The notes under the pieces: generated by a model | Database searches by the model: none | Seen by the model: the letters and a program-made list of their open reading frames with translations, nothing else | Told to the model about the DNA's origin: nothing | Program-made: the position numbers and the translations under genes | In this document: piece by piece, positions 3,201-31,003 of the stretch | Numbering within the stretch: position 1 is the first letter of the stretch | Layout: every line of letters begins with the position of its first letter | NCBI GenBank assembly: GCA_013177935.1 | Contig: JABLXZ010000002.1 | Location: forward strand, 384,181-448,180 | Length of the DNA: 64,000 bases | DNA from: a candidate division WOR-3 bacterium | GTDB lineage: Bacteria > Hydrothermota > Tepidihabitantia > Tepidihabitantales > Tepidihabitantaceae | Direction of reading: 5' to 3'

Positions 3201-4050
3201 CATCTTCAGTACCCGAAACATCGATGGCAACCTCAATCATCGTGTCCGGATATGGTCCGTTCAGGGGATAGGGACCGATGGTGTAAAGCCGGAAGGTGCG
3301 CGGGTCGATTGTTACCGGGTCAAAACCGGCGTTCTTCAAATCGTTGGGGGTGATTTTGTAAATACCGGTCGTCTCGGTTTTCACCTGGCACCAGACCGGA
3401 AACCGGTTGAAGAAGTTGAAAGAGTCCTTTTCTGGTCCGGGTGTTTTCCAGTGGATTGCGGTTTTGCCGTTAAGGAGTAATCGGGTTAGCACCGAATCGA
3501 AGGGGTCGGGCTTGAGATTTTGCCGGGCAGGACGGCTGAAGTTGAGGACACAGTTTACCTGATGGTGAATCAACGCCCTTTTTTGGACCGGATTGTATTG
3601 GACTGGATTCAGTTTGATGCGGGCGACCCTGATGTTGCGGACTGTTTCAATACTCAGCAGTTCTGCTGGGGCTTTGGGCCAGAACTCATCTTTTTCATAC
3701 ATTCCGCCCGGTGCAACCGGTTGTTCGCTCAGTGCTGGTGCCGGGCGAATTTCAACTCCGGTCTGTTTCTCGGTTCTGGCTGTCGAGTATTGAAGCCGGA
3801 CTTCACCTTCCTGAGGCACGCCCACTAAAACGATTTTGCCCGGCAGGTCAGGTTCACCAGGTAGAGCGATGCGGTCGGCATCGGGTAAATCTATTCCGGT
3901 TCTTCCGGTGGTGATGTCAAGGGAGTCGATACAAAACTCAAACTGGACCTGGGTTGGGGTTTCAGAGATTAAGCGGGTTGAACTGGCACCGAAGGTTAAA
4001 AGCGGGAACAGGGATAAAAAAATGATAAGGGCGGGTGCCGATTTTTTCAT
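202..4050 (-). CDS. Large secreted peptidase C25 (gingipain-like) family protein with T9SS C-terminal sorting domain
   Basis: N-terminal signal peptide MKKSAPALIIFLSLFPLLTFGASS; FGHGAG ... 33 aa ... FFGSCGVGRF reproduces the His/Cys dyad spacing of gingipain catalytic domain; C-terminal ~80 aa beta-sandwich tail (KIFTISGRLV...GIYLYKIDAQ) typical of Por/T9SS cargo. Confidence 0.6.
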   Translation of the reverse strand: MKKSAPALIIFLSLFPLLTFGASSTRLISETPTQVQFEFCIDSLDITTGRTGIDLPDADRIALPGEPDLPGKIVLVGVPQEGEVRLQYSTARTEKQTGVEIRPAPALSEQPVAPGGMYEKDEFWPKAPAELLSIETVRNIRVARIKLNPVQYNPVQKRALIHHQVNCVLNFSRPARQNLKPDPFDSVLTRLLLNGKTAIHWKTPGPEKDSFNFFNRFPVWCQVKTETTGIYKITPNDLKNAGFDPVTIDPRTFRLYTIGPYPLNGPYPDTMIEVAIDVSGTEDGKFDPQDQILFYARAPSYWNDSLTEWQQNYYTRYRVFWLTWGSDNGKRMAQVPAANPANPQTRALNRVRLEEDKLCPARSGLLWVWERYSNAGAPSATFYRELNLPNRDTINKLTVRFYAWTDKTSETYYAVLYLNGTILDTVAIAATNQNCPANVFVFENLPLAAAAPENKKDTLTVTLLGAADVYLDYIEADYTQNLTITRNQSAIEFYTRSGGAFSISGVGEDFIILDVTNPFQPQRISLTFAENQGRFQWNGSGNFFGSPAAGLRTPVSLKKRQPGTLRNPEEKADYYIICPDEFLPVARQFARYRENNISGITGASAKAVPLSQIYDDYAFGMEEPGAIKTFLATKQPAYGLLAGDATYDYKDNLGLGKHPGVPAYEIGFDLDYEVYNPYVKALDAWFADFDGSGSSPDMILARVTSRTPQELRQFLDKVKRYETQELGLWAKRLLLLGDDEYLGDPTKRESTIHIEGCERIAPLAGNQLDIVKVYLTEYPLEAIKSKPKAEVELLRQLDLGALLWCFFGHGAGFQLCHERAFNIEDVPLVNNGSRNPLAFFGSCGVGRFDDTKYEAIAEELVRSAEGCIATIGASKATYSGSNENFAHKLFTHLLAHPEEPIGPAFYEAWFQSNLYILFGDPATKLRLPQIGNRPTATPDTFYPGGWVQWEITPELNQGYYEIRATEAARERYYFSDAANITYILPGQEIFRGTGSFQNSTFSGTFIVPKTDYPDTIVVGNGRYVRKRETCLISAILWHGTDARTLLSAPMYLSPNPAPTTDSQAPEITLRADNVLLRLKDTTWVPKRFTLHGTVTDPSGVLLLPDPAYGLKLYLSDPAKQIQLNDRFTYDDNSATTGRFSYPLTLEQTFDSLIILVADNLLNRRIGTYYLKTDLREQLRIDTCLVFPNPVKDRAIFTFTLTRPARVTVKIFTISGRLVRIIGPQECGFGYNQIEWDGCDRDGTPLANGIYLYKIDAQTGEILSGDQFQTRSASCRDKLIVHR

Positions 4051-4083
4051 AACTAAAAAATTTTAATAGTTAAATGTTAGTGG

Positions 4084-5238
4084 TCAAGGTAAAATCAGTC
4101 CTAAAATCGCGCCGGCGAGAAGGAGCCAGATTGGCTCAACCCGGAAACGCAACAGCAAAATCAGGGTGATAACGGCAATGAGCGCCGGAACCAGTCCGGT
4201 TAAGGTGGTTTTGGCAATAAAAACGGTTGACACCAGAAGCATACCGCAGACCGCTGGCATAACCCCGCTGAGAAACGCCTGTGCCCAGGTGTTTCCTCTT
4301 ATCCGGTTGTAGGCGTGAATCAAGCCGAGAAGCATCAGGGCAGAGGGTAGAAATGTTCCAATGGTCGCGATGAGGGCACCGGGCAAGCCGAGCACTTTGA
4401 ACCCGATGAAGGTTGCCATAATTGCGACCGGTCCTGGGGTCATCTGACCGAGCGCGACCGCATCGACGAACTCCTGCATTGTAAGCCAGCCCCGTAACTG
4501 GACCACTTCATGCTGTAAAAATGGGATGGCGGCAAACCCACCGCCAAAGATGACGGTTCCCATTTTGAAGAAGACCAGCGCCAGTTCGCCCGCTTTCTGA
4601 ATTGACGGTCCTAAAGAACTGGCGGTAGTGATAAGAAAGGGAACTGGTGTCAGGGTCATAATTGGAGGGGTTTTCTTGGGCTTAATGCCAGACAGGACGA
4701 TTCCCAGTACCCCACAACCGAGAACAACGAGCAGGACATCACCTTTGAAAAAGAGCGCAATTGCGGCGATTGTGCCAATTATTACTCCCTTTAAACTCTT
4801 GATATTTGACCTGCCAATAGACCAGGTTGCCCAGGCAAGGATGCCGGCAACCACCGGTTGGATACCGGCAAAGATTTTTGCAATCAAAGGCAGCGTACCA
4901 AAGCGGAAATAGAGGATGCCAAGGGCACACATCAGAATAAAGCCGGGTAAAAGCAGGGCGACCGCAGCACAAACCATCCCTTTTATGCCGGCAAGGCGAT
5001 AGCCAATATATTCGGCGTAATTAGAGACGAAAGGACCGGGTAACATCTGACCCATCGCCACCGCGGTTGCGAGTTCCTCATCGCCAATCCACTTTTTCTT
5101 TTCAACAACCTCCTGGCGGATGATTGCCAGCATTCCAGGTCCGCCGCCAAAGCCGATTAAGCCGACTTTAAAGAAGGTCAAGCCAATTTGTTTTAATGAG
5201 ACCGGTTTGGTGTTATCGGTGTCTTGTGAACTGCTCAC
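4084..5238 (-). CDS. chrA: Chromate transporter, CHR family (two fused ChrA halves)
   Basis: Duplicated CHR motifs FGGGPGMLAIIRQEV and FGGGFAAIPFLQHEV, polytopic hydrophobic protein. Confidence 0.75.
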   Translation of the reverse strand: MSSSQDTDNTKPVSLKQIGLTFFKVGLIGFGGGPGMLAIIRQEVVEKKKWIGDEELATAVAMGQMLPGPFVSNYAEYIGYRLAGIKGMVCAAVALLLPGFILMCALGILYFRFGTLPLIAKIFAGIQPVVAGILAWATWSIGRSNIKSLKGVIIGTIAAIALFFKGDVLLVVLGCGVLGIVLSGIKPKKTPPIMTLTPVPFLITTASSLGPSIQKAGELALVFFKMGTVIFGGGFAAIPFLQHEVVQLRGWLTMQEFVDAVALGQMTPGPVAIMATFIGFKVLGLPGALIATIGTFLPSALMLLGLIHAYNRIRGNTWAQAFLSGVMPAVCGMLLVSTVFIAKTTLTGLVPALIAVITLILLLRFRVEPIWLLLAGAILGLILP

Positions 5239-5285
5239 CTGCCAATTTTAGATTGCAGGCAGTAAAACTCAAGAAATGTTGCGGG

Positions 5286-5915
5286 TTACCTTCTGGGTTT
5301 ATATCCCAGTCCGACACCAAGCGAGGCGGCAGGGAGACGCATCGGCCTCCCCCACATCTCACCCGATGTGAGGTTGGCACCGATGTGCAGCAAAAGGTTG
5401 CGCTTCAGGGGTAAGGTGCCGGTTAAACCAAGCGCGATGCCGCGCAGGCCGATGCCGGCGGTGCCGGTAAAATAGGGGTTGAAGTCATAAATATACCAGA
5501 TGTCCAGAAGTCCCGGAAAACCCAGGGTAGTTTGAAGCGCTCCCTTTTTGCCGGTGCGGAACTTGGCGCCGATTTGAAAGTCGTAAATAAGTGGTGAAAA
5601 GTATGGACCCTCATGACTGTGTGTCAACCATATACCGTTACCAACAATACCCTGCAAAACCAGCCCTGCCTTTTCTGAAAATCCGTAGTTCAGGCGCAAG
5701 GTTCCTGCTATGTCTAAGTAGTAATCACTATAGCCGAAACCTATCGGATAAGGTGGTACTGGTGAAAATCCAGAGGTGGCGTATCCGGTGTTCAGGCTTA
5801 TTCCGCCGGTGATTTTAGGTCCGGGCACTATTTCTGCCCGGTCAAAAAACGGGATTGAACACCCCGCCAAAGCCAACAGGACAAGTATCACGAATCGGCA
5901 GCCATTTTTGAACAT
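5286..5915 (-). CDS. Hypothetical lipoprotein / outer-membrane beta-barrel-like protein
   Basis: Lipoprotein signal LLALAGCS, Gly/Tyr-rich alternating pattern, GGAGG SD 5 nt upstream. Confidence 0.45.
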   Translation of the reverse strand: MFKNGCRFVILVLLALAGCSIPFFDRAEIVPGPKITGGISLNTGYATSGFSPVPPYPIGFGYSDYYLDIAGTLRLNYGFSEKAGLVLQGIVGNGIWLTHSHEGPYFSPLIYDFQIGAKFRTGKKGALQTTLGFPGLLDIWYIYDFNPYFTGTAGIGLRGIALGLTGTLPLKRNLLLHIGANLTSGEMWGRPMRLPAASLGVGLGYKPRR

Positions 5916-5946
5916 CCAACCTCCTCAGTGCGGTTTTTACTACCGC

Positions 5947-6594
5947 CTATTTGATAGTTGCCGAAATTAGTTCGCCGTGATAGATAAATGTGTAACCGGC
6001 AAAAGTTTGTTCAAAATGGTACTGGACATTACCCACTCTGTCGGCATACCATTCGTACATTCGTAAGGTGTCGGCACCGGAGATGGAACGGGTTTCAATC
6101 TTCCAGGCATTGCGGTAAGTGCCAGCGGCTACGGTGATGTCTTCCTTCTTCAACACTTCAGCGGTCATATCTTGATTTACCCGCCACTGTTTTCCCGCGG
6201 CAAGCGGTAGTGCCAAAATGGTATCGGGTTCAGTGTCGTCTTTGCTGTCATAGCTCAAAACAAATTTGTCGGTTTCTCTTACATAACAGGTTTCATCAAT
6301 CGTATAGGTGCTTTCGCGCGGATAACGGATGTGAACGGTGCCAACTTTTATCAGTTCAACAACATCTTCCCCTGAACTCAGTTTGTCGTTCTTTGTTGCC
6401 CGGGTATTGATGGTTAAGGTTTGCACCGTGTCCGGTGTGCCGACGGTGCTGGTTGTCATTAAGGTCCAGGCATACCAGTTCCAGGTGCTGCCAATGGAAA
6501 GCGGGTAATAGTCCGGTTTGCTGCCGAAGATGTCGCAGGAGACGAATAAGGCGAGGGTGCCGAACAGGGTCAGGATAATTAGCGCTTTACGCAT
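5947..6594 (-). CDS. Hypothetical lipoprotein
   Basis: Start refined to MRKALIILTLFGTLALFVSC (lipobox) with GGAGG SD; ORF-track start at 6642 probably too long. Confidence 0.45.
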   Translation of the reverse strand: MRKALIILTLFGTLALFVSCDIFGSKPDYYPLSIGSTWNWYAWTLMTTSTVGTPDTVQTLTINTRATKNDKLSSGEDVVELIKVGTVHIRYPRESTYTIDETCYVRETDKFVLSYDSKDDTEPDTILALPLAAGKQWRVNQDMTAEVLKKEDITVAAGTYRNAWKIETRSISGADTLRMYEWYADRVGNVQYHFEQTFAGYTFIYHGELISATIK

Positions 6595-6693
6595 AAGCCT
6601 CCTTTCTGATAAAAGGGTAGAGTCCAAACTCGTTTCTGTCAATCCGGGCGTATTTTGTTGCCCAGAAGAAGTTTTCCGGTATATTTTCCGATA

Positions 6694-7668
6694 ATGAAGG
6701 TTTTAGTTACCGGTGGTGCGGGCTATATTGGCAGCGTTACCAGTTTACTTTTAGCCGAATCCGGTTGTGATGTTGTGGTGTTTGACAACCTGAAAGGCGG
6801 GCATCGTTCCGCAGTTTTGCCGCCAGTGCGGCTGGTTCCGGGTGACCTTGCTGATGCCGATTTGATTGACCGGATAATTAAAGCGGAAAAACCGGACTGT
6901 GTGATGCACTTTGCGGCTTTGATTGCGGTTGGTGAGTCGGTGGAAAAGCCCGATTTGTACTTTTACAACAATGTGGGTTGCGGGCTCAATCTGTTGAATG
7001 CGGTAGGCAGAAACCGGGTGCCGCGATTTATTTTCTCCTCAACCGCGGCGGTTTACGGCACACCGCACGATGTGCCTGTGACAGAAGCCGCGCCCTTGCA
7101 ACCGGAAAATCCGTACGGTGAGACCAAGAGGTTTTTTGAAGAGTTGTTAAAGGTGTATGCCCGCATCTACCGGTTTTCCTATTGCATCCTGCGTTACTTC
7201 AATGTTGCCGGTGCGTATAAAGGGCTGGGTGAAGACCATAGGCCCGAAACCCATCTGATTCCGCGGATTTTGCGCTCGGTTCTGCATCCAGGCGAGACCT
7301 TTGAGATTTACGGTGCGGACTATCCGACCCGGGACGGCACCTGTGTGCGGGACTACATCCACATCTATGACCTGGCACGGGCGCATCTTTTCGCCTTGAG
7401 GGCGCTAAAAGAGGAAAACCTTTTGTTCAACCTTGGGTCGGAAAACGGTTATACCGTCAAAGAGGTTTTTGCCACCTGTGAAAAGGTGGTGGGTGAGAAA
7501 ATTAACTATCGGATTGCGCCCCGCCGGCACGGCGATGTGCCGGTACTGATTGCCTCTTCGGCAAAGATTAAAAGAGAACTGGGCTGGAAGCCGGAGAAAA
7601 CGCTCGAAGATATGGTGCGTGATGCCTGGGAGTGGCACAAAACACACCCCCGGGGTTATTTAGATTGA
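6694..7668 (+). CDS. galE: UDP-glucose 4-epimerase (NAD-dependent epimerase/dehydratase)
   Basis: MKVLVTGGAGYIGS Rossmann motif at refined start, catalytic YxxxK (YGETK), GalE-like length. Confidence 0.8.
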   Translation: MKVLVTGGAGYIGSVTSLLLAESGCDVVVFDNLKGGHRSAVLPPVRLVPGDLADADLIDRIIKAEKPDCVMHFAALIAVGESVEKPDLYFYNNVGCGLNLLNAVGRNRVPRFIFSSTAAVYGTPHDVPVTEAAPLQPENPYGETKRFFEELLKVYARIYRFSYCILRYFNVAGAYKGLGEDHRPETHLIPRILRSVLHPGETFEIYGADYPTRDGTCVRDYIHIYDLARAHLFALRALKEENLLFNLGSENGYTVKEVFATCEKVVGEKINYRIAPRRHGDVPVLIASSAKIKRELGWKPEKTLEDMVRDAWEWHKTHPRGYLD

Positions 7669-7701
7669 CAAGATAGGTAGAGGTTGTTTAAATAATTTAA
7701 T

Positions 7702-8691
7702 ATGAAAAAGGTTGGTATTGCAGGAGCAACCGGTCTCGTTGGCGAAACGCTAATCAGCCTTCTGGAATCAGGACCATATAAAATTGATGAATTAAGGCTT
7801 TTCGCCTCGGAGAAGAGTGCCGGGAGAAAGGTGCAGTTTCGGGATAAGGAAATTGAGGTTAAGACCCTAACGGTTGACGGGTTCAAAGGGCTGGACATCG
7901 CCTTTTTCTGTGTTGAGAACGAACTGGCGCGGCAGTTTGTGCCCGAGGTGGCGAAGTTCTGTCCGGTGATTGACAAGTCAAGCGAGTTCCGGCTGAAAGA
8001 GGATGTGCCGCTTGTGGTGCCCGAGGTTAATCCCGACGCAGTTAAAGAGCACAAAAACATCATCGGCAATCCTAACTGCACAACGATTCCGCTCGTGGTT
8101 GCGGTCAATCCCCTGCACCAGGAGTTCGGGTTAAAAGAGATTTTTCTTGCTACCTATCAGTCGGTATCGGGTGCGGGTCGGGCAGCGGTCGAGCAACTTT
8201 ATTACGAGAGCGAGTTTTTCTGTGTCCAGCGCCAGCCCGACACCGAAGGAAGCCCGTTTCCGGTGCAGATTGTGGACAATGTGATTCCCTGGATTGGCGG
8301 CGGTGATAGGTCTGGTATGAGCGGTGAGGAGCAAAAGACGGTTCTCGAAACGCGGAAAATCCTCGGGCTTGCGGATTTGAAAATCAACTCAACCTGTGTC
8401 CGGGTGCCGATTACGGTCGGGCACAGCCTTGCGGTTACCTGCCGGTTTGAGAATAAGGTAAACCGGGAAAGGGCGCTGGAACTGCTTAAGAAGGCGCCCG
8501 GTGTCGTGTTAAAAGAGGGTATAGAACCGCTTACACCGCTTCACTGTCGCGGTAAAAACGAGGTGTTTGTCAGTCGGGTGCGGCAGGGCGCAAACGAGAA
8601 TGACTTAAACCTCTGGATTGTTGCCGACAACCTGTACAAGGGTGCGGCGACCAATGCCCTGCAGATTGCCGAACTTTTGTTTAAATCTTAA
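7702..8691 (+). CDS. asd: Aspartate-semialdehyde dehydrogenase
   Basis: N-terminal GIAGATGLVGE NAD(P)-binding motif, active-site GNPNCTTI cysteine motif. Confidence 0.8.
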   Translation: MKKVGIAGATGLVGETLISLLESGPYKIDELRLFASEKSAGRKVQFRDKEIEVKTLTVDGFKGLDIAFFCVENELARQFVPEVAKFCPVIDKSSEFRLKEDVPLVVPEVNPDAVKEHKNIIGNPNCTTIPLVVAVNPLHQEFGLKEIFLATYQSVSGAGRAAVEQLYYESEFFCVQRQPDTEGSPFPVQIVDNVIPWIGGGDRSGMSGEEQKTVLETRKILGLADLKINSTCVRVPITVGHSLAVTCRFENKVNRERALELLKKAPGVVLKEGIEPLTPLHCRGKNEVFVSRVRQGANENDLNLWIVADNLYKGAATNALQIAELLFKS

Positions 8692-8701
8692 AAGGGGGCA
8701 G

Positions 8702-10687
8702 ATGAAAAGTTTTCTTTTCTGTTTTCTAACTATTTTGCTCGTGCCGGGCGCAATTTTTGCCCAAGCCGAGTTTGACCAATTTATACCCGAGCACGGCTGG
8801 CGAAACCAGTTTCCACCTGGTACAACTTTTGCCGAGTCGCTGCACACTTACGATGTCCGGCATTACCGGCTTGACTTTGACCTGCCGATGAGTGATGCCA
8901 GTTACCGTTGTTTTGAACGGGTGACAATAAAAAGCAATGTTTCGTCCCTTGACACTTTCAGTCTGGACTTTGCCGGGTTGGTTTGCGATTCGGTGAAAAG
9001 GGGTCCGGTGGCGTTAACTTTTTCCACCCCGCCGGAACGGCTTTTAATTCAACTTGATAGCCCCTTGGCGCTCGGTGAGTCCACGGCGATTGACATTTTT
9101 TTCCATCGGGAAGCGAGCGCACCACAGCGGGGTTTTTTCTTTGCGCGGCCGCCCACGGTGCTTTATGCCCATGCGATGACCTGTGGCTGTCCTCGTGACA
9201 ACCATTACTGGTTTGCCTGCTGGGACTGGCCCAGCGATAAGGCGGAGCGGGGTTGTGAAATCAATATCACGGTGCCGGACACCTTTCAGGCATGTGCCAA
9301 CGGGCTGCTTGATTCAATAACCAGTGCCCCGGGTGGGAAAAAGACCTACTGGTGGCGTCACACCTATCCCATCGCTACATATCTGATGACCTTTTCCGCT
9401 TCAAGGTTCGCCTTTTGGGATACGGTGGTTGTCTGTCCGAATGGTGACACCGTTCCTTTAATGTACTTTATGTGGCCCCGGGATTCGGCGGCAACCCGCA
9501 CCGGTTATCGGCTGGTGCCGGATATGATGCTCTATTTCAGCGATACCAGTCGGTTTGGTCCTTATCCGTTTGAGCGGTATGGCATGGTGCCGGGGTATTA
9601 TGGGTTTCCCTGGGGTGGAATGGAGCATCAGACCCAGGTGATGATTCACACCAGTTATATTGGTGGTGGTGAGGCGACCATCTGTCATGAACTTGCCCAT
9701 ATGTGGTGGGGCGATATGGTTACCCATATCGGTTATGCTGATGTCTGGCTCAATGAAGGGTTTGCCTCCTGGGCAGAGTGTTTATATATGGGGCACCTGA
9801 ACGGAAGGAATTACTTCCAGAATTACATTGCGGTTAAGGCGCGGCAGTACTTCACCCAGCACCGCAGCCGGGACTTTCCGATTTACAATCCGCCCTGGAG
9901 TGAAATCTACAACTACGGGATTGTTTACTGTAAGGGCTCCTGGATATTGCGGATGCTGCAGTTTCTTACCGGTGATACCACCTGGCAAACGCCCGGGATA
10001 CTGTTTCGGGCGCTGCGGGTTTATGCTGACTCATTTAAGTACGGCACGGTGTCAACCGCCGATTTCCAGCGGATTGTGGAACAGGTTACCGGCATTGACT
10101 TCGACACCTTTTTCAACGAGTGGGTTTATGACCGGGGCTATCCGAAATTTCATTTATACTGGACAAAAAGGGCGCAGGCAGACTCGTATCAGGTGGTGAT
10201 TAACCTTTATCAGCGCAATGACACCAACTCGGCACCGCTGTTCCACATTCCGCTGCCCATCAGGTTTAACTGCGTCGGGGAAAGCGTGCTGGCGACACTG
10301 GATGTTCAGGACACACTGGTCGTTGACACATTTGTGCTGGCACAGGAGCCATTGAGCATCACCCCGGACCCGGACAACTGGATTTTAGACAGTTGCTATG
10401 TGACGCCGGTTGGATTAGAGGAAGAGGCAGGGGTTGCAGTTCGGCTCCAGGGTGTCCAGCCCAATCCGGCACGAGCCCGGGTACGGTTTATTTTGAACCG
10501 GGCAGGCACGACACCCATTGAGATTTACGACCACACAGGCCGTTTGGTGGTGAAGGTTCAACCGGGCAGAGAAACAGTGGAATGGAACGGTGTTGACCAA
10601 AAGGGGAATCAGGTACCCGCCGGGGTTTACTTTGCCCGTTTGGGCAGAGAAGAGGTACTACCGGTGCGGTTTGTTCTTTTAAGATAA
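8702..10687 (+). CDS. M1-family zinc aminopeptidase with T9SS C-terminal sorting domain
   Basis: HELAHMWWGD ... WLNEGFASWAE (HExxH+E gluzincin M1 signature); signal peptide MKSFLFCFLTILLVPGAIFA at refined start; T9SS-type tail. Confidence 0.7.
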   Translation: MKSFLFCFLTILLVPGAIFAQAEFDQFIPEHGWRNQFPPGTTFAESLHTYDVRHYRLDFDLPMSDASYRCFERVTIKSNVSSLDTFSLDFAGLVCDSVKRGPVALTFSTPPERLLIQLDSPLALGESTAIDIFFHREASAPQRGFFFARPPTVLYAHAMTCGCPRDNHYWFACWDWPSDKAERGCEINITVPDTFQACANGLLDSITSAPGGKKTYWWRHTYPIATYLMTFSASRFAFWDTVVVCPNGDTVPLMYFMWPRDSAATRTGYRLVPDMMLYFSDTSRFGPYPFERYGMVPGYYGFPWGGMEHQTQVMIHTSYIGGGEATICHELAHMWWGDMVTHIGYADVWLNEGFASWAECLYMGHLNGRNYFQNYIAVKARQYFTQHRSRDFPIYNPPWSEIYNYGIVYCKGSWILRMLQFLTGDTTWQTPGILFRALRVYADSFKYGTVSTADFQRIVEQVTGIDFDTFFNEWVYDRGYPKFHLYWTKRAQADSYQVVINLYQRNDTNSAPLFHIPLPIRFNCVGESVLATLDVQDTLVVDTFVLAQEPLSITPDPDNWILDSCYVTPVGLEEEAGVAVRLQGVQPNPARARVRFILNRAGTTPIEIYDHTGRLVVKVQPGRETVEWNGVDQKGNQVPAGVYFARLGREEVLPVRFVLLR

Positions 10688-13395: not shown

Positions 13396-14034
13396 ATGGT
13401 GGTAGTGAATATGATCGGCAGATGCTCGCGTTGGAAAAAATGCAAAGCGGGTAAAAACCCAAAGATAGGGTGTTATGGGTGTGGATTTAAACATTTTGAG
13501 AATATATTAAATGAGAACAAAGAAAATAAAATGTTACAATTTTTAGCAGAAAAATTTTTTGATTTATGCTCGGAAAGACAAAATCGGGGAGGAAGGATTG
13601 CTCTTGATAAACCAATAAATGAGTTGCTCATAAAAGAGATTCAAGAGCTTAACGAGTTGAATATCGAAGACCTTACACTGACCATTAATGGAGAGGAGGT
13701 CAATTTTAAGGTTAAGTGTGACGGGAAATTTGAGTATAACAAAATATACTTTTTTTACGAGGTCAAAGGATTAGGAGAGGGTTCCAATGATATACTCTCT
13801 GCAATCACTGCTGCCCAGTTATTAAAGGAGGCAATAGGAAGTAACTACCACTATTATTATATTGGGATTACTAGAAACAACTCCAATAACGCCTTTCGCA
13901 ATAAGAAGAAGAGTAAGATTTACCCATATGTGAAATGGGCAGAAAATAAAGGTTTTTTGAAGTTCTATAGCATTGTAGACATTCAAGAACTTGTAAACGA
14001 AATTAAACAGGTAATTAATAAAAAAGAATCTTAA
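13396..14034 (+). CDS. Hypothetical protein with N-terminal Cys4 zinc-ribbon, first gene of AT-rich RM islet (possible nuclease/accessory)
   Basis: CSRWKKC...GCYGCG zinc-ribbon-like motif; K/N/I-rich AT codon usage; possible D...EVK PD-(D/E)xK-like motif; function not recognisable. Confidence 0.4.
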   Translation: MVVVNMIGRCSRWKKCKAGKNPKIGCYGCGFKHFENILNENKENKMLQFLAEKFFDLCSERQNRGGRIALDKPINELLIKEIQELNELNIEDLTLTINGEEVNFKVKCDGKFEYNKIYFFYEVKGLGEGSNDILSAITAAQLLKEAIGSNYHYYYIGITRNNSNNAFRNKKKSKIYPYVKWAENKGFLKFYSIVDIQELVNEIKQVINKKES

Positions 14035-14069: not shown

Positions 14070-14918
14070 ATGACCCATCATAAGTTGATAATTGGCAATT
14101 GCATGAGTATGAAAGAGATTCCAGATGAGAGTGTCCATCTGATGGTTACTTCCCCACCATATTTCAATGCACCTTTTGACTATAAAGGGCTATTTAAAAA
14201 TTATGACCAGTACCTTGGTGTTCTTAATAGGGTAGCCAAAGAAGTTTATAGAGTATTAAAAGAAGGCAGGATTGCTGTCTTAAACATTGATGATATGCTT
14301 GTCAATAGTGAAAAGTTTCCTATTGTTGCGGATGCAACGAAAATATTTCAAAGTGCGGGTTTCCGGTATCGGGATAGGATTATCTGGAAAAAACCTGATG
14401 GCTATTTAAGAATCAGCAGGAGAAGCGGGGTACTTCTCCAAAATCCTTATCCGATGTACTTTTACCCGGATAATCTTTTAGAAAGTATAATTATTTTTCA
14501 AAAAGGGAAATTTAACTATCATTCCATCCCCAAGGAAATTAGGGAAGCATCAAAGATAGACCTAAAGGAATTTTCTGATAACAAATGGTATATGACATTA
14601 TGGGAAATGGTTAATGTTTTGCCCAACTCGCCGTTAGAAAAGGAAATTGCGGCATTTCCCGAAGAGTTGCCTTATAGGATAATTAAACTATTTTCGTATA
14701 AAGGAGAAACAGTCTTAGACCCGTTTGTCGGCAGTGGTACCACAATGAAGGTTGCCCGAGAACTCGGCAGAAACAGTATCGGGATTGAGATAAAAAAGTC
14801 ATTGATTCCGATTATCAAGAAAAAGGTGGGTTTTGAAGGACAGTTGAAGATTGAGAACAGCGATGACACATTTGAGGTTATAATAAGGGAAGGCGTCAAG
14901 TATGGATGTGTCGGCTAA
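14070..14918 (+). CDS. Beta-class N4-cytosine/N6-adenine DNA methyltransferase (Type II RM)
   Basis: Motif IV SPPY near N-terminus (MVTSPPYFN) and motif I FVGSGTT near C-terminus = beta-class amino-MTase order. Confidence 0.8.
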   Translation: MTHHKLIIGNCMSMKEIPDESVHLMVTSPPYFNAPFDYKGLFKNYDQYLGVLNRVAKEVYRVLKEGRIAVLNIDDMLVNSEKFPIVADATKIFQSAGFRYRDRIIWKKPDGYLRISRRSGVLLQNPYPMYFYPDNLLESIIIFQKGKFNYHSIPKEIREASKIDLKEFSDNKWYMTLWEMVNVLPNSPLEKEIAAFPEELPYRIIKLFSYKGETVLDPFVGSGTTMKVARELGRNSIGIEIKKSLIPIIKKKVGFEGQLKIENSDDTFEVIIREGVKYGCVG

Positions 14919-15975
14919 AATTACCGGCATTAAATATTCGCCCCTTTTATGCCGAAATCTGAATACATATTCATTAAGGCAACTTGATGAGGCGTTATCA
15001 AGAGATAGCGCTTTTATTTTAAATGTGGATAACATGGGGCAAGTTGCAGTAAGTTGGTGGGTTTCAGCGAAGAGAACAAGGTCTTATCCTTACGCCCGGG
15101 TTTACGATACCCTTAGCTTTCAAGGTAAAAAAGTCACCATAATCCCAATTGTGAAAGATGAAGGAAAAGAAGGAGACCGAGACTTTTTACAGTGGGATAC
15201 TATTTCGTTAATGAGTTTATTAGGTGTTTACACAATTATCTCTTATTACAATTATGCGGAAAGAAGTCGTAGATATCGGCACAAAATAACAAGCCAGCGG
15301 TTTGATATCACACACCTTACAAGGGAAGTAAACAACCTTATGTCCTATCAATCAGATGCCTTACATTGGAACCTTGCTCAAATTGAGAATGTTGGAGAGA
15401 TAGGCAAACGGGCAATTGATTCCTATGAAAGGATTTCAAAAGAGCTTGGTGTTGAAATGCACTCCAGAGAGTCAGCCAGGGAAAGAATTGCAGAGCTCCT
15501 TAAAGGTAAAGAAAATTTTATGACGCTTTCGAGAGATTTGGCGAGGAAAGCACAAGAACGGGAATCGCAAACAAACCAACCCAAAGAAAAGTTATCCGGA
15601 ATAAAAGCAACTCTAACGATAAAAAACTATATTGGCGGTTATTATTTTTTTACCTGCGACGAGGTTAATATCGAAAAGGGAGTTATACAGTTAATAGAGG
15701 GAAAACATAGCAAGCAAAGCATCATTCCTTCATTGGAAGACATAAAAGATGGATTAGTGAAAATGATTTTATTTACTAATTTGACGGAAGTGAAAATTGG
15801 GGATGTTAAGTATAAGCCTGTCTCGATCTTAAAACTTACAAGCGACCGGAAGTTTTCATTAGCATCTTTAAGCAAGTCAAGGGTAAACGATTTACGACTT
15901 CTGAAAAGAGAAGCGATAGTGAATAATTTTAAGGTATTGGTAAACAATATCGATTTGCAGGAAATTGATATATGA
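14902..15975 (+). CDS. Candidate cognate Type II restriction endonuclease (hypothetical)
   Basis: Overlaps MTase by 17 nt (translational coupling), same AT-rich codon usage; possible PD-x13-ExK (CDEV...IEGK); no recognisable family. Confidence 0.4.
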   Translation: MDVSAKITGIKYSPLLCRNLNTYSLRQLDEALSRDSAFILNVDNMGQVAVSWWVSAKRTRSYPYARVYDTLSFQGKKVTIIPIVKDEGKEGDRDFLQWDTISLMSLLGVYTIISYYNYAERSRRYRHKITSQRFDITHLTREVNNLMSYQSDALHWNLAQIENVGEIGKRAIDSYERISKELGVEMHSRESARERIAELLKGKENFMTLSRDLARKAQERESQTNQPKEKLSGIKATLTIKNYIGGYYFFTCDEVNIEKGVIQLIEGKHSKQSIIPSLEDIKDGLVKMILFTNLTEVKIGDVKYKPVSILKLTSDRKFSLASLSKSRVNDLRLLKREAIVNNFKVLVNNIDLQEIDI

Positions 15976-20990: not shown

Positions 20991-22160
20991 ATGAAAGAAA
21001 GGTACAGGTTTCTAATCATCCTCGGGGTTTTTCTTCTTTTCTATTTTCTACCTTTTGAGCGGAGTCGGGTTCAGAATGCAATTCTTGAAGGTTTTCTGAT
21101 GCTCCAGGACTATGCCCGGCTCCATGTGCTTTTGTGCCTTGTTCCTGCCTTCTTTATTGCGGGGGCGATACAGAACTTTATCTCAAAAGAGGCGGTGTTA
21201 AAGTACTTCGGTCCCAAAGGAAACAAGGTGCTTGCCTATTCCATTGCCTCAATATCCGGTGCGATTCTTGCGGTCTGCTCCTGCACGGTTTTGCCGATGT
21301 TTATGGGCATCTACTATGCGGGTGCGGGCTTAGGGGTGGCGACAACATTTCTCTATTCGGGTCCGGCGATTAATGTCTTAGCGATAATTATGACCGGCAG
21401 GGTTCTTGGTTTAGAACTGGGTGCGGCAAGGGCGATTGGTGCGGTTGTTTTTTCGGTGGTTATCGGGCTTTTGATGGCGGCAATTTTCTTTCGTTCGGAA
21501 AAACAGCGGGCTGAGGCGGCGGAGTTTTCAATCAGCACGGAGCCGCCAAGGCGTCGGTTATGGCAGAATGTCCTTTACTTCGGGGCGATGATTTTTTTCC
21601 TCGTATTTGCCAACTGGGGCAAGCCCAAAGAACCGATTGGCTTCTTCAACACGGTCTATTCGGTGAAGTGGTTTCTTGCCGGGGGTTTTCTTGTACTGAC
21701 TTTGCTAATGGTCTGGCGCTGGTTTAATGGTGAGGAGCGCAAATCCTGGGTTTTAGCCACCTGGGGTTTTGCCAGGCAGATTCTACCTTTGCTTCTTGCC
21801 GGGGTGTTTGTTGCTGGATTCTTACTGGGCAGACCGGGTTTGAATCGGGGTGTAATTCCCGATTCGGTGATTGCCGGGCTCGTGGGCGGAAACTCGTTGT
21901 TCGCCAACCTTTTTGCCTCGGTCTCTGGTGCCCTGATGTACTTTGCGACTCTGACCGAGATTCCAATCCTGCAGGGGCTTTTGGGTTCAGGAATGGGTAA
22001 GGGTCCGGCACTGGCACTACTCCTTTCCGGCCCGGCGCTCTCCCTGCCTTCAATGATTGTCATCATCAGGACAATTGGATTTAAAAAAGCGATTACCTAT
22101 ATCCTTCTGGTGGTTATTCTGTCAACCGTTGTCGGAATCGTTTATGGCGCATTATTTTAG
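20991..22160 (+). CDS. arsP: ArsP-like/DUF318 permease (putative organoarsenical efflux)
   Basis: Polytopic membrane protein with CSC motif (AVCSCTVLP) resembling ArsP TPFCSCS; ars operon context. Confidence 0.55.
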   Translation: MKERYRFLIILGVFLLFYFLPFERSRVQNAILEGFLMLQDYARLHVLLCLVPAFFIAGAIQNFISKEAVLKYFGPKGNKVLAYSIASISGAILAVCSCTVLPMFMGIYYAGAGLGVATTFLYSGPAINVLAIIMTGRVLGLELGAARAIGAVVFSVVIGLLMAAIFFRSEKQRAEAAEFSISTEPPRRRLWQNVLYFGAMIFFLVFANWGKPKEPIGFFNTVYSVKWFLAGGFLVLTLLMVWRWFNGEERKSWVLATWGFARQILPLLLAGVFVAGFLLGRPGLNRGVIPDSVIAGLVGGNSLFANLFASVSGALMYFATLTEIPILQGLLGSGMGKGPALALLLSGPALSLPSMIVIIRTIGFKKAITYILLVVILSTVVGIVYGALF

Positions 22161-22219
22161 ACGCAATGCGAAAAAATGGTTTCAAACTGGCTGGAACCAA
22201 CAGTTTAGGATTGGAGGCG

Positions 22220-22627
22220 ATGATGATTAAAATTCTTTTCGCCTGCGTGGGCAACTCCTGCCGGAGTCAGATGGCAGAGGGGTTTTGCCGGGCGTTGGGC
22301 AGTGATGTGGAGTGTGCTTCGGCAGGAACTCAGCCCGAAGAAGCAGTTTCTGTTGAGGCGATTAGGGTGATGCAGGAGGTGGGGATTGATATATCAAAGG
22401 CAAAGCCGAAAAGTTTTGGCGACCTGCCCGATTTAAAGTTTGACTATCTGGTGACGATGGGTTGTGAGGTGGAATGCCCGTATATTCCCGGCGTAAAAAG
22501 GATTGAGTGGAACATCCCGGACCCGAAGGGCAAGAGTCTGGATGAGTTCCGTCGGGTACGGGAGATAATAAGACAGGAGGTGGTGAAACTGTTTGCCGAT
22601 ATCGGCAGGCTGAGAGAAAAAAGATGA
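22220..22627 (+). CDS. arsC: Arsenate reductase, LMW-PTP family (thioredoxin-coupled)
   Basis: P-loop CVGNSCRS (CX5R) at N-terminus; GGAGG SD before refined start MMIKILF. Confidence 0.75.
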   Translation: MMIKILFACVGNSCRSQMAEGFCRALGSDVECASAGTQPEEAVSVEAIRVMQEVGIDISKAKPKSFGDLPDLKFDYLVTMGCEVECPYIPGVKRIEWNIPDPKGKSLDEFRRVREIIRQEVVKLFADIGRLREKR

Positions 22628-26652: not shown

Positions 26653-27132
26653 GTGAAAGCCATTGACATTGTAAAGTTAATTATCAGCATCGCCCTGCCC
26701 CTGGCAGCAGGCGCGCTCGGCAATATCGCCACGGCGCCGGCAATTCCTGACTGGTATCAGAGTTTAAACAAACCGGTGTTCAACCCGCCGAGATGGCTCT
26801 TCGGTCCTGCCTGGACATTGCTTTTTATCCTGATGGGTATCGCTCTGTTTTTAGTCTGGCGCAAAGGGTTTAATGCCCCGGGTATCAAACTGGCGCTACT
26901 CGTTTTTGTGATTCAGTTGGTGCTCAATGTCCTCTGGTCGTTTCTCTTCTTTGGCTTACGCTCCCCCCTTGCTGGACTCGTGGAGATTGTTATCCTCTGG
27001 CTGGCGATTCTTCTTACCATCATTCTCTTCTTCCGGATTTCTGTCCCTGCCGGTATCTTACTTTTGCCTTACATTGGCTGGGTCACCTTTGCCACTGTCC
27101 TCAACGCCGCGATAGTAAAACTGAATTCGTGA
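26653..27132 (+). CDS. tspO: TspO/MBR tryptophan-rich sensory protein
   Basis: Five TM segments with conserved Trp pattern (WYQSLNKPVFNPPRWLFGPAWTLLF...LWSF), GTG start. Confidence 0.7.
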   Translation: MKAIDIVKLIISIALPLAAGALGNIATAPAIPDWYQSLNKPVFNPPRWLFGPAWTLLFILMGIALFLVWRKGFNAPGIKLALLVFVIQLVLNVLWSFLFFGLRSPLAGLVEIVILWLAILLTIILFFRISVPAGILLLPYIGWVTFATVLNAAIVKLNS

Positions 27133-27300
27133 AAAGACTTAGTACGTTTTACTGATTAATTAAACTTTTTCTTAAACGCTTGCGTGATATGCTGTCTTAC
27201 CTTTTCTCAACAAGGAACAAAGGATCTCTAGATAATTTTTTGTGAAGGGAAGTTTTGCGCTAAGCAAAAACATGGACTATCGCCCCCCAGAAAAATGGAA

Positions 27301-29430
27301 TTAAAAATTGGTTTCATAATTTGGCGTTTTGTTCATATTTTGTAAAGTGTTTACCATTTCCGACAAAATTTTTCGGACAGTATTTATATTCCCCATTTTT
27401 TCTTGGCATACGGCTTGCCAAAGCATTGCTTTGATCATACCGGCTTTGTGATTCTCAGTTTTATAAGTTTCGAAAGTTTTAATAAATAAGCCAATTGCTT
27501 CTTGCAGATTTCCCTCGTAGTACATTTTTATACCTAAACAACACCCTAAATTTGCTATACCTTCTGTTTCTGAAAATTCCATTGATAGCTCTCTTCCCCA
27601 CTCAAAAAATTTTTTTGCTTCTTCAATTAACCTATTTACCTCTGTGAAATTTTTTGTTCGACTGTGCATTATGACTTCAGCTAAACGGTGTTTTTGAAAA
27701 AAGAACCAGCTTGATTTCTGCAGAGGAATTTGGAGCGACAGCCTATAAAAGAAAACTGAGATTCGAGCGACAATTGGGATAAAAAATTTTAGTATTTTGG
27801 TAATGAATTTTCTGCTACTTTTTGTCGCGTACAATAACGTTAGATAAAATAATCCTTCGACGATAAAATGAAAAAAATCAGCGCATTCGAAGTATAACAT
27901 GGAAGTAAATGTTCCAATGTCAAAGTCAGTCAATTTTGTTCGCCATATTCGTGTTTTCAAAACAGAGACGGCGAAGCAATAACAGGCATATAGATAATAC
28001 TTTAATGCCAAAACTTTTCTTAACCCTTTCTTTGTGCATGTATGCTTAAATAGCCCCATGTAGTCAGACCCATTTCTAATTGTTTCATGGATGAACGCAG
28101 CCAGCCGCCTCTCAGGTTTATATGTCGTATATGGCAAATATTCAATTGCTTGGTTACGTTCTTTTATAGCTAAAGTTAAGTTCCCTGCATTTCTGTAAAC
28201 TTCTCCCAAGTTTGATGAAAAAGCGTATCTTAGGTCAAAATTATTTTTTGGGATGTCTCCCCGCAAGGTCTGAAGTAGCTTCTCTGCTATTTCCCACAGT
28301 CCTGGTTTTTCCAAAATATTAGCCAAAATTAATCTCGCCGTAGCGGGGTGAAAAAAATATTTCCTTGTGTAATAATCAATAAATGTATTAATTTCATTTA
28401 TTCTGATGAGCGCCAATTCGCGCTCCCTTATTTTAATTTCATCAAAAGAGGAAATATTTATCTTAGGGAAAATAATAGTAGATAAATCTAAATTCAATCG
28501 TTTAGCAATATTGTGGAGTATTTTACTTAAATCGCCCACAAGAATGTAATGTTCCCGATGGGACAAAAATTTTATAATTTCTTTGAAACTCTGATTATCT
28601 AAAATAGATTTTTTAGGAGTATGCCATATTACTTTTTTATTTGACTTGGTACGAGCAATAACTGGGAAAACATCAATGTCGTTATTACTATAACCCATAA
28701 AGAAAATATCATAATTAGCTGAAACTGATTGTAAAAATTCTGTTTTATACGAGGGTAAGCCTATGCCTACCATTTCTACCGTGGCTAATAACTTGGTATT
28801 TTGCGGATCTTCTGTTTCATCTAACGTGCCGTGCAATTTGTATAGGTAATTATTTTTGTTGGGATAACGTAAAGCGTTCGAGTAAATTTTAGATTCATGA
28901 CCTCCCATTTGTTCGGGTACAATTAAAGGGACACCTAAGAGATGAAAGGCGTTTTCCACCAAATTATCAAAGTTTACTGTGATGAAGTGCCTACAATATC
29001 CGTATTTTGCCATTAACGCGAGGAAATAATGTCTGTAATTTGGGCCATAATTTTCTTTAAGGTATTTTGGCTTCAAAATATCGTAAAACTCTAATGAAGT
29101 TTCGCCTATCGTCCTTGATATAAAGTCTAATAATACTTCTAATGCAAGTCTTTTGACTTCATTGGTACCTTTTTCAGTGAGTATATTCTCGATTCCTGCT
29201 TCTCTGAAAAGCATATTCCTAATAAGTTGTTTGAGTCCGGGCAATACAAGATTCGAGGATAATTCACAATTATCAGAGAGAGGTAATAGAGAGGGATATT
29301 CTAAAGAGATTCCTGCTCCAAAGAAGAAAATAAGACAAGAATTTCTAAGCGAATTTGCAATTTCCTCTAATGCCTCGTCAAGATTGCGGGATACGATTAA
29401 AGTACTCTTTTCTACCTTATAGCACTCCAT
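27301..29430 (-). CDS. SIR2-domain (defense-type, SIR2_2/DSR-like) protein with ~400-aa C-terminal alpha-helical/TPR-like domain; candidate NADase anti-phage effector
   Basis: N-terminal SIR2 motifs GAGIS (FFFGAGISLEYP), TVNFDNL (cf. TTNYDxL) and KLHGT (cf. KLHGS) in the order and spacing of ThsA/DSR SIR2 domains; AT-rich codon usage; flanked by AT-rich non-coding DNA. Confidence 0.6.
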   Translation of the reverse strand: MECYKVEKSTLIVSRNLDEALEEIANSLRNSCLIFFFGAGISLEYPSLLPLSDNCELSSNLVLPGLKQLIRNMLFREAGIENILTEKGTNEVKRLALEVLLDFISRTIGETSLEFYDILKPKYLKENYGPNYRHYFLALMAKYGYCRHFITVNFDNLVENAFHLLGVPLIVPEQMGGHESKIYSNALRYPNKNNYLYKLHGTLDETEDPQNTKLLATVEMVGIGLPSYKTEFLQSVSANYDIFFMGYSNNDIDVFPVIARTKSNKKVIWHTPKKSILDNQSFKEIIKFLSHREHYILVGDLSKILHNIAKRLNLDLSTIIFPKINISSFDEIKIRERELALIRINEINTFIDYYTRKYFFHPATARLILANILEKPGLWEIAEKLLQTLRGDIPKNNFDLRYAFSSNLGEVYRNAGNLTLAIKERNQAIEYLPYTTYKPERRLAAFIHETIRNGSDYMGLFKHTCTKKGLRKVLALKYYLYACYCFAVSVLKTRIWRTKLTDFDIGTFTSMLYFECADFFHFIVEGLFYLTLLYATKSSRKFITKILKFFIPIVARISVFFYRLSLQIPLQKSSWFFFQKHRLAEVIMHSRTKNFTEVNRLIEEAKKFFEWGRELSMEFSETEGIANLGCCLGIKMYYEGNLQEAIGLFIKTFETYKTENHKAGMIKAMLWQAVCQEKMGNINTVRKILSEMVNTLQNMNKTPNYETNF

Positions 29431-29629
29431 AAATTACCTTTTATTCAGTTTTTTGTCTTGGCCTGCTACATATCCAACTTTGATATGAATGCCTAAATTA
29501 CCATATAAACGCTGTTGGATATTTGGCATCGTTGATATTTATAATTTATTTACATCACAAAGTCAAGGATTTTGGGTAAAAGTTTGCGATGGTCCGGGGC
29601 GGAAGGTTAGGTCCCGAAAAAGTCCCTTT

Positions 29630-31003
29630 TTAGTGCCGGAGCAGGCGTAAGCCGTTGATGGGCTGGAACCACGCCTGGACGCGAATGTCCTGATTGGAGA
29701 TTCTTATCTGGGTCACTTTGACAATTGCATAGTAGTCGTCTTCGGTGCGAATGGCAAAGGAGACCGGTGCAGTGTTGAGCCGGATGATGTTATGGTAGGA
29801 TGTGTCGCCGGCAGGTGGCACTGGTCCCTGTTCATCGGCGAGCAGGGCGAGCGCGGTCTGGCGCCAGGGTCCGGCAGGCACATTGGCGCTGGTGTCATAA
29901 GGTGCGATGTTGGGGCTGGCAACAAAGTAGAAAGGTCCGTTGGAGCCAAGAGCGAAGTCGGTGCAGAACCAGTCAATTGAGTCGCAGTACAGGGTGTCGT
30001 CCATCGGATAAGCCTTGCCCGTGCCGGTCAAGCGGTTCCAGCCGTAGCCCGGTTTATCTGGTCCAGAAAGTTCGCCCACAGTCACGGAGCCGGTCTGGAC
30101 CGGTATGGTGGAAAGGGGAACGGTGTCTTCGTAAACGGTGGCGCCAAAGACCGCAGCGATTTTGTACATTCCGGTTAAGCCGTGCGGGTTGTGTTCCACG
30201 CTCAAAGCGGTGGTTTCAGCGACGGTGCTCCAGCCGGTGCCGCCAATCTCTTTGAACTGCAACCGGTAAAAGTTGGGCACACCTTCAACCGGCGGTTGCC
30301 AGGACAGGCGCACGGTGGTGTCGGTTGCGGCTTCAATTGTGAAGGCGGTTGGCGGACCACCCGGAATCGCCACGACCGTAACAAGAAGGGTGTCGGACCA
30401 GTTGGTCATCTGCATCCGGCTGTCGCGGGCGCGCACCGCTACCGCATAGATGCCCGCAGTGTCAAAGGTGTGGTTGACGAAAAGGTATGTGTCGCTTGGC
30501 ACCGGTCCGCGCCAGTCGTCAACTGTGCCGCCCCAGTCAATCTGGTACCACAAACTGTCGTTCTGGGGATGGGAGGCACGAAAGCGGTATTGATAGGATA
30601 CGCCGGTGGTGCAGAAGGCAGGACCAGCCGGCTTTTCCGGAACTCCGGGCGGCAGTAAGCGGATGTTGATAATCAAACTGTCGCTCCAGGGCGACTCTTT
30701 CAGTTGCGGGTCCCGGGCGATTGCCTTGATGGTGTAGGTGCCGGTGTCCGGATAGGTATGGGAACGCCGCACAGGCTGGCCGCTGGCATAGAATGGTGAC
30801 CAGTCAATACTGGAGGTGTCGCCCCAGACGATTTTGTAGGAGACCTCTTTGCCTTCGGGGTCAGTGGCGACAAAGGTAAAGGTGACGGTGTCATAGGGAC
30901 GGGCGGTTGTGGGACCGGAGATTTCCGGTGCGGTTGGTGGCTGGTTGGTGACACAGTTGACAATCACCAGTATCAGACACAAGAAAAACAGGCTTTTGTT
31001 CAT
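29630..31003 (-). CDS. Secreted protein with tandem PKD/FN3-like Ig domains
   Basis: Signal peptide, repeated TDPEG/W-x-D Ig-like modules. Confidence 0.45.
   Translation of the reverse strand: MNKSLFFLCLILVIVNCVTNQPPTAPEISGPTTARPYDTVTFTFVATDPEGKEVSYKIVWGDTSSIDWSPFYASGQPVRRSHTYPDTGTYTIKAIARDPQLKESPWSDSLIINIRLLPPGVPEKPAGPAFCTTGVSYQYRFRASHPQNDSLWYQIDWGGTVDDWRGPVPSDTYLFVNHTFDTAGIYAVAVRARDSRMQMTNWSDTLLVTVVAIPGGPPTAFTIEAATDTTVRLSWQPPVEGVPNFYRLQFKEIGGTGWSTVAETTALSVEHNPHGLTGMYKIAAVFGATVYEDTVPLSTIPVQTGSVTVGELSGPDKPGYGWNRLTGTGKAYPMDDTLYCDSIDWFCTDFALGSNGPFYFVASPNIAPYDTSANVPAGPWRQTALALLADEQGPVPPAGDTSYHNIIRLNTAPVSFAIRTEDDYYAIVKVTQIRISNQDIRVQAWFQPINGLRLLRH

Follow-up and report, generated by a model that had tools for sequence, protein, structure and literature searches.

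A single-gene AT-rich islet in a candidate division WOR-3 genome encodes a predicted SIR2-TPR fusion protein, a candidate one-protein anti-phage NADase

Here we describe a single-gene, AT-rich islet from the genome of a candidate division WOR-3 bacterium (GenBank assembly GCA_013177935.1, contig JABLXZ010000002.1, positions 384,181 to 448,180 of the forward strand), together with the 709-amino-acid (aa) protein that it encodes, in which a predicted SIR2 domain of the defence type is followed by a modelled tetratricopeptide repeat (TPR) solenoid. The whole stretch of 64,000 nucleotides (nt) that was analysed is called the window, and its first letter is position 1. A first-pass annotation, made by a model from the letters and a list of open reading frames (ORFs), had put the islet forward as a candidate for an uncharacterised anti-phage system that depletes nicotinamide adenine dinucleotide (NAD+).

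An AT-rich islet with one gene

The islet has a guanine-plus-cytosine (GC) fraction of 0.344, the lowest of all 2.5-kb stretches in the window, whose mean is 0.509 with a standard deviation of 0.045. Followed in steps of 500 nt, the fraction remains between 0.31 and 0.37 throughout positions 27250-29499 and lies between 0.45 and 0.60 on either side. One long ORF is found in it, and the bias extends both to its codons and to its product: GC at third codon positions is 0.325, as against 0.56-0.70 in seven neighbouring genes, and lysine, asparagine and isoleucine make up 7.8, 6.8 and 8.5% of the protein, compared with 2.6, 5.5 and 6.1% in four neighbours, phenylalanine and glutamate being enriched as well. 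The first-pass annotation had thus seen correctly an islet of low GC, a lone minus-strand gene with AT-biased usage rich in these three residues, and AT-rich non-coding flanks of about 170-200 bp, which measure 168 and 199 bp at a GC of about 0.36 (Table 1).

Domain architecture and relation to known SIR2 systems

The N-terminal half of the protein is, on the evidence of profiles and of a structural model, a SIR2 domain of the defence type. The Pfam model SIR2_2 (PF13289) matches aa 148-267 with 38.9 bits, above its cut-off of 24.5, and the canonical SIR2 model (PF02146) stays at 16.5 bits, under its cut-off of 24. Across an alignment of 19 family members, which have identities of 24-47% to the window protein, the invariant residues are G40, N153, F154, D155, K198, L199, H200 and G201, and the family alignment keeps G38, A39, G40 and S42 of the GAGIS loop without change. 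Profile alignment lays TVNFD on the TTNYD, and KLHGT on the KLHGS, of the solved anti-phage protein PsSIR2 (8w9l). The catalytic residues of DSR2 have been described as S51, N133, D135 and H171, the H171A and N133A-H171A mutants being inactive (PMC11850899), and this S/N/D/H set corresponds to residues of the window protein. Furthermore, the confident AlphaFold2 model built on the family alignment (predicted local distance difference test, pLDDT, 82.8; predicted template modelling score, pTM, 0.79) adopts the sirtuin Rossmann fold of the SIR2_2 superfamily, and its SIR2 part is closest in fold to the sirtuins of ThsA, SIR2-HerA, KomC and Avs5, ThsA being the closest solved fold. No CxxC motif exists in the window protein, which consequently lacks the Cys4 zinc ribbon of sirtuin deacylases. 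Judged by these matches, the protein belongs to the SIR2_2 superfamily and its predicted activity is that of an NAD+ glycohydrolase. The three motifs that had been picked out by eye do follow one another in the order proposed, the catalytic Asn and His that were to be checked are present and, with the Asp, invariant in the 19 members, and the placement of the N-terminus in a non-SIR2 Rossmann family, named beforehand as the contrary outcome, did not occur.

The C-terminal half is modelled as a TPR solenoid of the Rap/NprR/AimR/MalT kind, and its fold is not a novel one. Tandem helix-turn-helix (HTH) repeats wind into a superhelix, as is proper to the TPR superfamily. In fold comparison the domain scores 21.9 with the Rap protein of phage phi105 with its peptide, 21.1 with the Rap of pLS20, 17.9 with domain III of MalT, 17.8 with NprR and 16.1 with AimR, and similar scores are reached by the generic TPR scaffolds APPBP2, TONSOKU and APC5. 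Identity to receptors of the Rap/NprR/PlcR/AimR type is 8-13%, and all Pfam TPR matches in the domain are sub-threshold. The earlier description of about 400 aa of helical, possibly TPR-like sequence was accurate as to the helices and the repeats, but the accompanying remark that the domain is unrelated to anything recognisable does not stand.

Between the two domains nothing else is apparent. Neither a Walker A motif (GxxxxGK[ST]) nor a Pfam match to a nucleoside triphosphatase (NTPase) is found in the window protein, and the AlphaFold2 model has no beta-strand beyond residue 298; therefore, no STAND or other NTPase is interposed. The presumed sensor diverges faster than the presumed effector, with a mean pairwise identity of 0.257 in the C-terminal half against 0.385 in the SIR2 half, as expected of a domain that tracks phage targets, and the only C-terminal residues invariant across the family are L367, G416, Y562 and G664. 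Other conserved positions in this half are R425, R452, W575, E585, W611 and Y656. The hydrophobic region at aa 470-570 was considered for transmembrane helices and rejected, given that relatives (e.g., P0011) carry charged residues there and that the model shows long buried solenoid helices.

Table 1. Features of the islet, of its gene and protein product, and of the sequences that surround them (positions in the window)
Feature	Position	Strand	Basis or remark
AT-rich islet, one gene and two non-coding flanks	27133-29629		composition profile
Gene for the 709-aa SIR2-TPR protein	27301-29430	-	ORF list; N-terminus aligns with homologues; identical product called on Logan contig SRR6186653_7259
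Predicted SIR2_2 domain, aa 1-315	28486-29430	-	Rossmann-type fold, helical insertion at about aa 44-130, no zinc ribbon
GAGIS, aa 38-42, NAD-binding glycine-rich loop with Ser42	29305-29319	-	translation; matches DSR2 S51 loop (PMC11850899)
TVNFDNL, aa 151-157, putative catalytic Asn153 and Asp155	28960-28980	-	N153, F154, D155 invariant in 19 members; aligns to PsSIR2 TTNYD
KLHGT, aa 198-202, putative catalytic His200	28825-28839	-	K198, L199, H200, G201 invariant in 19 members; aligns to PsSIR2 KLHGS
All-helical TPR-like solenoid, aa 318-709, presumed sensor/autoinhibitory domain	27304-28479	-	15 helices
Downstream non-coding region, 168 bp	27133-27300		sequence; GC 0.357
Upstream non-coding region, 199 bp, presumed promoter region	29431-29629		sequence; GC 0.362
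Imperfect inverted repeat, 15-nt arms at 87%, 35-nt spacer	29464-29528 (arms 29464-29478 / 29514-29528)		repeat search
Mini-ORF, 31 aa	29434-29529	-	mechanical call
Mini-ORF, 33 aa	27172-27273	-	mechanical call
Short repeats bracketing the islet	26981-26994 / 29695-29708		
Short repeats bracketing the islet	27078-27089 / 29708-29719		
Short inverted repeats bracketing the islet	27081-27094 / 29752-29765		

Among the described systems, DSR2 of Bacillus subtilis resembles the window protein in being a single polypeptide with an N-terminal SIR2 domain, an alpha-solenoid sensor and no NTPase. It is also the best full-length match in Foldseek (E 7e-8), a real but partial similarity, since the template modelling score (TM-score) is only 0.26. 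DSR2, however, is a protein of about 1000 aa that has, besides a middle domain, a HEAT-like C-terminal domain with which it clamps the tail-tube protein of the phage (PMC11850899), whereas the protein described here has 709 aa and TPRs. No Dsr2 model occurs among the PADLOC matches listed for the window protein, nor among the 23 families matched by the 19 members; Dsr1 gives no PADLOC match for the window protein and is touched by two of the 19 relatives (E 4.7e-6). The term DSR-like, which the first-pass annotation had used for a single-protein sensor-effector, is thus apt as an architectural analogy, in view of the domain order, the catalytic set and the Foldseek match, but it does not extend to membership of DSR1 or DSR2.

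Other SIR2 systems differ by a module or by a partner. In Avs5 (SIR2-STAND, AVAST type 5), a central STAND NTPase drives filament assembly, and such a module is missing here. ThsA of Thoeris carries a SLOG (type I) or Macro (type II) domain, neither of which is found by Pfam in the window protein, whose C-terminal domain is all-helical TPR instead; the PADLOC matches are partial and weak. Moreover, the ThsB/TIR gene that is adjacent in Thoeris is absent in the window, and among about 15 loci of the family a TIR gene adjoins in only one (L001), a TIR-like gene lying 1.7 kb off in another (L004). Unlike SIR2-HerA (Nezha) and SIR2-pAgo (SPARSA), the family has no HerA or short pAgo/APAZ partner in the window or at the loci of the relatives, and the pAgo-associated SIR2 models of PADLOC match the SIR2 core only. 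PDC-S65, a single-gene candidate of PADLOC with a SIR2-like core, is the best PADLOC match for 17 of the 19 family members; against the window protein the match covers positions 5-73 of 503 or 123-164 of 592 (E 3e-5), and it is best taken as similarity of SIR2 motifs and not as membership. No PADLOC, Pfam or NCBIfam model spans the window protein at full length, and the PADLOC check that had been recommended accordingly returned no known defence family covering the whole of it.

On the side of the sensor, the Rap, NprR, PlcR and AimR receptors and domain III of MalT are joined to HTH, phosphatase or STAND outputs, whereas the output here would be SIR2. In the literature searched, the combinations of SIR2 with TPR all contain a STAND NTPase, as in Avs5 (PMC12931631) and SAMD9, and no description was found there of a SIR2-TPR protein without an NTPase, or of PDC-S65. 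The domain combination and the family are hence undescribed, although pairing a conserved effector that depletes NAD+ with a variable sensor made of repeats is a well-established logic.

Distribution of the family and its genomic surroundings

Searched through a word index, a set of 5.8 billion protein clusters yielded 14 relatives, 11 of which (P0002-P0012) are near-full-length and 29-45% identical; searches of the same set with the SIR2 domain give few matches through the word index and are no measure of family size. An exhaustive HMMER search with the C-terminal profile alone, run over 1.84 billion representative proteins, found no more than 39, of which 25 reach E<=1e-10, and its matches below E 1e-9 are mostly multi-repeat TPR proteins. 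All ten further full-length matches of this profile that were scanned, the weak match P0038 included, carry SIR2_2 at the N-terminus above the Pfam cut-off. The SIR2 and TPR domains are therefore shown to be an obligate fusion, a rare and fixed architecture. In the same vein, a degenerate DNA pattern encoding PNxRHY...TVNFD, a pair of invariant motifs, was met in one genome among 185,579 species representatives. The possibility that the gene is a conserved core gene, which the first-pass annotation had named as a refutation of its own proposal, is at odds with these results: the family is rare and patchy, its neighbourhood differs in every relative, and its composition is foreign here.

A sister clade has the same domain order, with a SIR2 domain of the TVNFD type followed by canonical TPRs in complete ORFs of about 635-660 aa (L011-L013). 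The SIR2 domains of the two groups align by hhalign with a probability of 98.7-98.9 (E 1e-16 to 1e-17) and have in common the motifs GAGxS, PNxxHY, ITVNFDNLIE, K(I/L)HGS and GYSxxDxD. The C-terminal halves, on the contrary, differ: those of the sister clade match Pfam TPR_12, TPR_2 and MalT-TPR strongly (up to 123 bits), whereas the window family stays below all cut-offs and its C-terminal domain fails to align with them by hhalign. The sister clade is also uncharacterised, being annotated only as 'tetratricopeptide repeat protein'.

A few individual sequences deserve mention here. One SIR2 plus TPR protein of the sister clade (P0050) is labelled by NCBI as coming from a Promethearchaeota (Asgard archaeal) metagenome-assembled genome, under the name 'tetratricopeptide repeat protein, partial', and on this basis the SIR2 plus TPR architecture may cross the boundary between bacteria and archaea. 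In L013, two ORFs of about 636 aa stand in tandem (3563-5473 and 5834-7741, both on the plus strand); the second encodes SIR2 with canonical TPRs, and the first, without a Pfam match, may be a paralogue that has diverged, or else a partner. In turn, positions 605-6357 of L016 hold a distant TVNFD-type SIR2 gene (698 aa) after genes for an AAA_16/STAND-like NTPase (1092 aa) and a GIY-YIG nuclease (119 aa), with an operon-like spacing, in what looks like a different, multi-gene SIR2 arrangement.

The surroundings of the relatives point repeatedly to defence and mobility. The homologue in L001 (10001-12082) lies in a dense defence island with TIR, Mrr, PLD/DrmC-like, HicB and type III restriction-endonuclease-like genes. 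Elsewhere the neighbours are a NotI-type restriction-modification system (one relative), an integrase with HATPase and Eco57I genes (another), a Shedu SduA_C gene with LexA-like and resolvase genes, an IS110 transposase with an HTH antitoxin-like gene, or AbiEii/DUF6036. Most relatives on sufficiently long contigs are found beside defence, toxin-antitoxin or mobile genes, which is suggestive. Members of the family span GC values of 0.35 to 0.61, and the genes of L002, of L008 and of the window are about 0.19-0.21 more AT-rich than their higher-GC flank. The idea of a conserved two-gene system was discarded: a Pfam and PADLOC scan of the flanking genes in about 15 relatives brought out no recurring family.

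In the window itself, the neighbours encode TspO, a PKD/fn3-like protein, a metallophosphatase and BNR/T9SS (type IX secretion system) proteins. No HerA, pAgo, SLOG, STING or NTPase partner gene is present among them, and two TIR proteins used as tblastn queries have no match in the 64-kb window, in agreement with the earlier statement that no such partner is near. PADLOC recognises nothing meaningful in the flanking genes, the sole match being a weak and partial one of the metallophosphatase-like gene to PDC-S10. Scans of the window for tRNAs and Rfam families gave nothing, and neither an integrase nor an attachment site is seen at the islet.

The only other AT-rich islet of the window, at about 13.0-16.0 kb (GC 0.367-0.374), holds a type II restriction-modification cassette in three plus-strand ORFs (13396-14034, 14070-14918 and 14902-15975). 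A methyltransferase gene, which matches MTase_II of PADLOC (254.8 bits) and N6_N4_Mtase of Pfam (166 bits), is overlapped by a restriction-enzyme gene matching REase_II (323.6 bits), and upstream of them is a 212-aa ORF without an assignment. Since this second islet is a restriction-modification locus, AT-rich islets in this genome do carry imported defence genes. About 5 kb separate the SIR2-TPR islet from an arsenic-resistance cluster (20991-22627) with genes for an ArsP permease and a low-molecular-weight phosphatase, close to which an ArsR-type HTH gene is found. Many large secreted proteins of the window bear Por_Secre_tail (T9SS) sorting domains, a feature suggestive of a host resembling the FCB group.

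The non-coding flanks gave few signals. In a sigma-70 scan the upstream spacer (29431-29629) has no site on the strand of the gene, and the host promoter may be of a non-sigma-70 type; a scan of 27133-27300 found no terminator-like site. The inverted repeat noticed in the promoter region does exist, with perfect 9-bp core arms at 29470-29478 and 29514-29522, slightly off the position first given (29470-29522 in place of about 29476-29522). Shuffling the 199-bp region 1000 times with its dinucleotides preserved gives an inverted repeat at least as long 69 times (6.9%), so that the observed one is not more than chance readily gives; it has no statistical weight and is listed as a putative element only. 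Two mini-ORFs on the strand of the gene are mechanical calls: the 31-aa one stops 3 nt short of the start codon of the SIR2 gene and covers the inverted repeat, and the 33-aa one lies in the downstream spacer. They would be relevant only if the TPR domain were a peptide receptor. Finally, short repeats bracket the islet 40-150 nt beyond the GC change points, within the 3' ends of both flanking genes. In 300 mononucleotide shuffles, a direct match as good as the observed one (14 nt, one mismatch) turns up twice and an inverted match as good as the observed one (14 nt) four times, and these repeats could be either chance or an insertion scar.

Candidate mechanism, alternative readings and significance

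The best reading of the data, and one that we consider probable, is a one-protein sensor-effector anti-phage NADase similar to DSR2 and Avs5. The TPR solenoid would hold off the N-terminal SIR2_2 NAD+ glycohydrolase until a ligand of phage origin, most likely a protein or a peptide, binds the TPR domain during infection; this binding would release or oligomerise the SIR2 domains, and the NAD+ of the cell would be destroyed, aborting phage replication at the expense of the cell. The gene would have arrived by horizontal transfer as a one-gene cargo. DSR2 does likewise with a HEAT-like sensor (PMC11850899), and Avs5 with STAND and repeats (PMC12931631). NADase activity and a defence role are predicted from homology and genomic context, and autoinhibition, the nature of the trigger, oligomerisation and abortive infection are inferred as well.

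Several considerations weigh against this reading. TPR domains are also ordinary protein scaffolds, and some SIR2_2-like enzymes ADP-ribosylate proteins instead of hydrolysing NAD+. The PADLOC models cover just 40-90 residues of the SIR2 core, with E values of about 1e-5 for the window protein. The evidence from neighbourhoods comes from about 15 loci, many of them on short contigs. As to the vehicle of a transfer, relatives of the family are absent from IMG/VR, from the INPHARED phages and from the PLSDB plasmids. The flanking 457-aa protein is recorded on two contigs only, both with the same neighbours, and no islet-free relative was found for comparison.

The scaffold function of TPR domains leads directly to a non-immune interpretation, in which the protein would be either a regulatory sirtuin (deacylase or ADP-ribosyltransferase) whose TPRs recruit substrates, or the toxin of a selfish addiction element. 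Faint matches to NCBIfam deacylase models (E 0.002-0.1) point the same way, but they fall far under the cut-offs (18 against 221 bits for NF001752), the zinc-ribbon cysteines are lacking, and the defence sirtuins are closer in fold; moreover, a housekeeping regulator would not be expected to be so extremely rare, so foreign in composition and set among mobile or defence genes, and we hold this interpretation to be unlikely. Another reading is an orphan effector of the Thoeris type. Its TPR domain would take the part that SLOG plays in ThsA and bind a nucleotide, either His-ADPR or an isomer of cyclic ADP-ribose (cADPR), made by a TIR protein that is encoded elsewhere in the genome. ThsA provides the closest solved fold to the SIR2 part, and it has been proposed in a preprint that ThsI, the effector of type VIII Thoeris, senses cADPR through its TPR domain (10.64898/2025.12.03.692087). 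In L001, a 268-aa TIR_2 gene (9034-9840, plus strand; 99.4 bits) stands 160 bp upstream of the homologue on the same strand, and the gene of L004 that lies downstream of the homologue encodes a 116-aa, CAP12/Pycsar-type TIR-like protein (25.7 bits against a cut-off of 24.7). However, no TIR is next to the gene at 12 or more other loci, at least, the window included, or in the sister SIR2-TPR clade, and the tblastn search was negative across the window. In PADLOC the TIR of L001 scores 87 bits with its best match, PDC-S66, which is a single-gene candidate, and 42.9 bits with ThsB, and within so crowded a defence island its adjacency may be incidental. The four C-terminal invariants, furthermore, are almost only structural, unlike a conserved nucleotide pocket. 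An orphan Thoeris effector thus appears quite unlikely to us.

The similarity of the solenoid to Rap and AimR receptors suggests yet another kind of ligand. The protein could be a peptide-gated NADase in which a Rap/NprR/PlcR/AimR-like TPR domain binds a short linear peptide, be it a phage communication peptide or one of host or self origin, giving a quorum- or arbitrium-like depletion of NAD+, and the two same-strand mini-ORFs that flank the gene would then be of interest. But the identity to such receptors is low, TPR solenoids of this length look alike whatever their ligand, as the nearly equal scores of the generic scaffolds indicate, the mini-ORFs have no signal-peptide character, and this mechanism is unreported for any SIR2 protein, so that we rate it as very unlikely. 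In a wider formulation, which is improbable in our judgement, a TPR receptor of the Rap/AimR kind would gate a SIR2 immune effector directly and without an NTPase, the protein being the first such case, and a short peptide or another small ligand would turn NAD+ depletion on or off; the ligand could be a phage communication peptide or a TIR-made nucleotide. Were it true, peptide- or signal-sensing TPR receptors would be tied to abortive infection in one protein of 709 aa.

Returning to the one-protein sensor-effector as the preferred reading, its confirmation as a defence system would add a compact third single-protein SIR2 architecture, SIR2 plus TPR without an NTPase, to those of DSR2 and Avs5. 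The gain would be one of breadth and not of a new concept. The family and its sister clade are absent from the current models of defence finders and are hence missed by present annotation. The absence of the NTPase raises, in turn, the question of how a TPR sensor alone controls a sirtuin NADase, for which a protein of this size is small enough to allow straightforward structural and trigger-mapping work.

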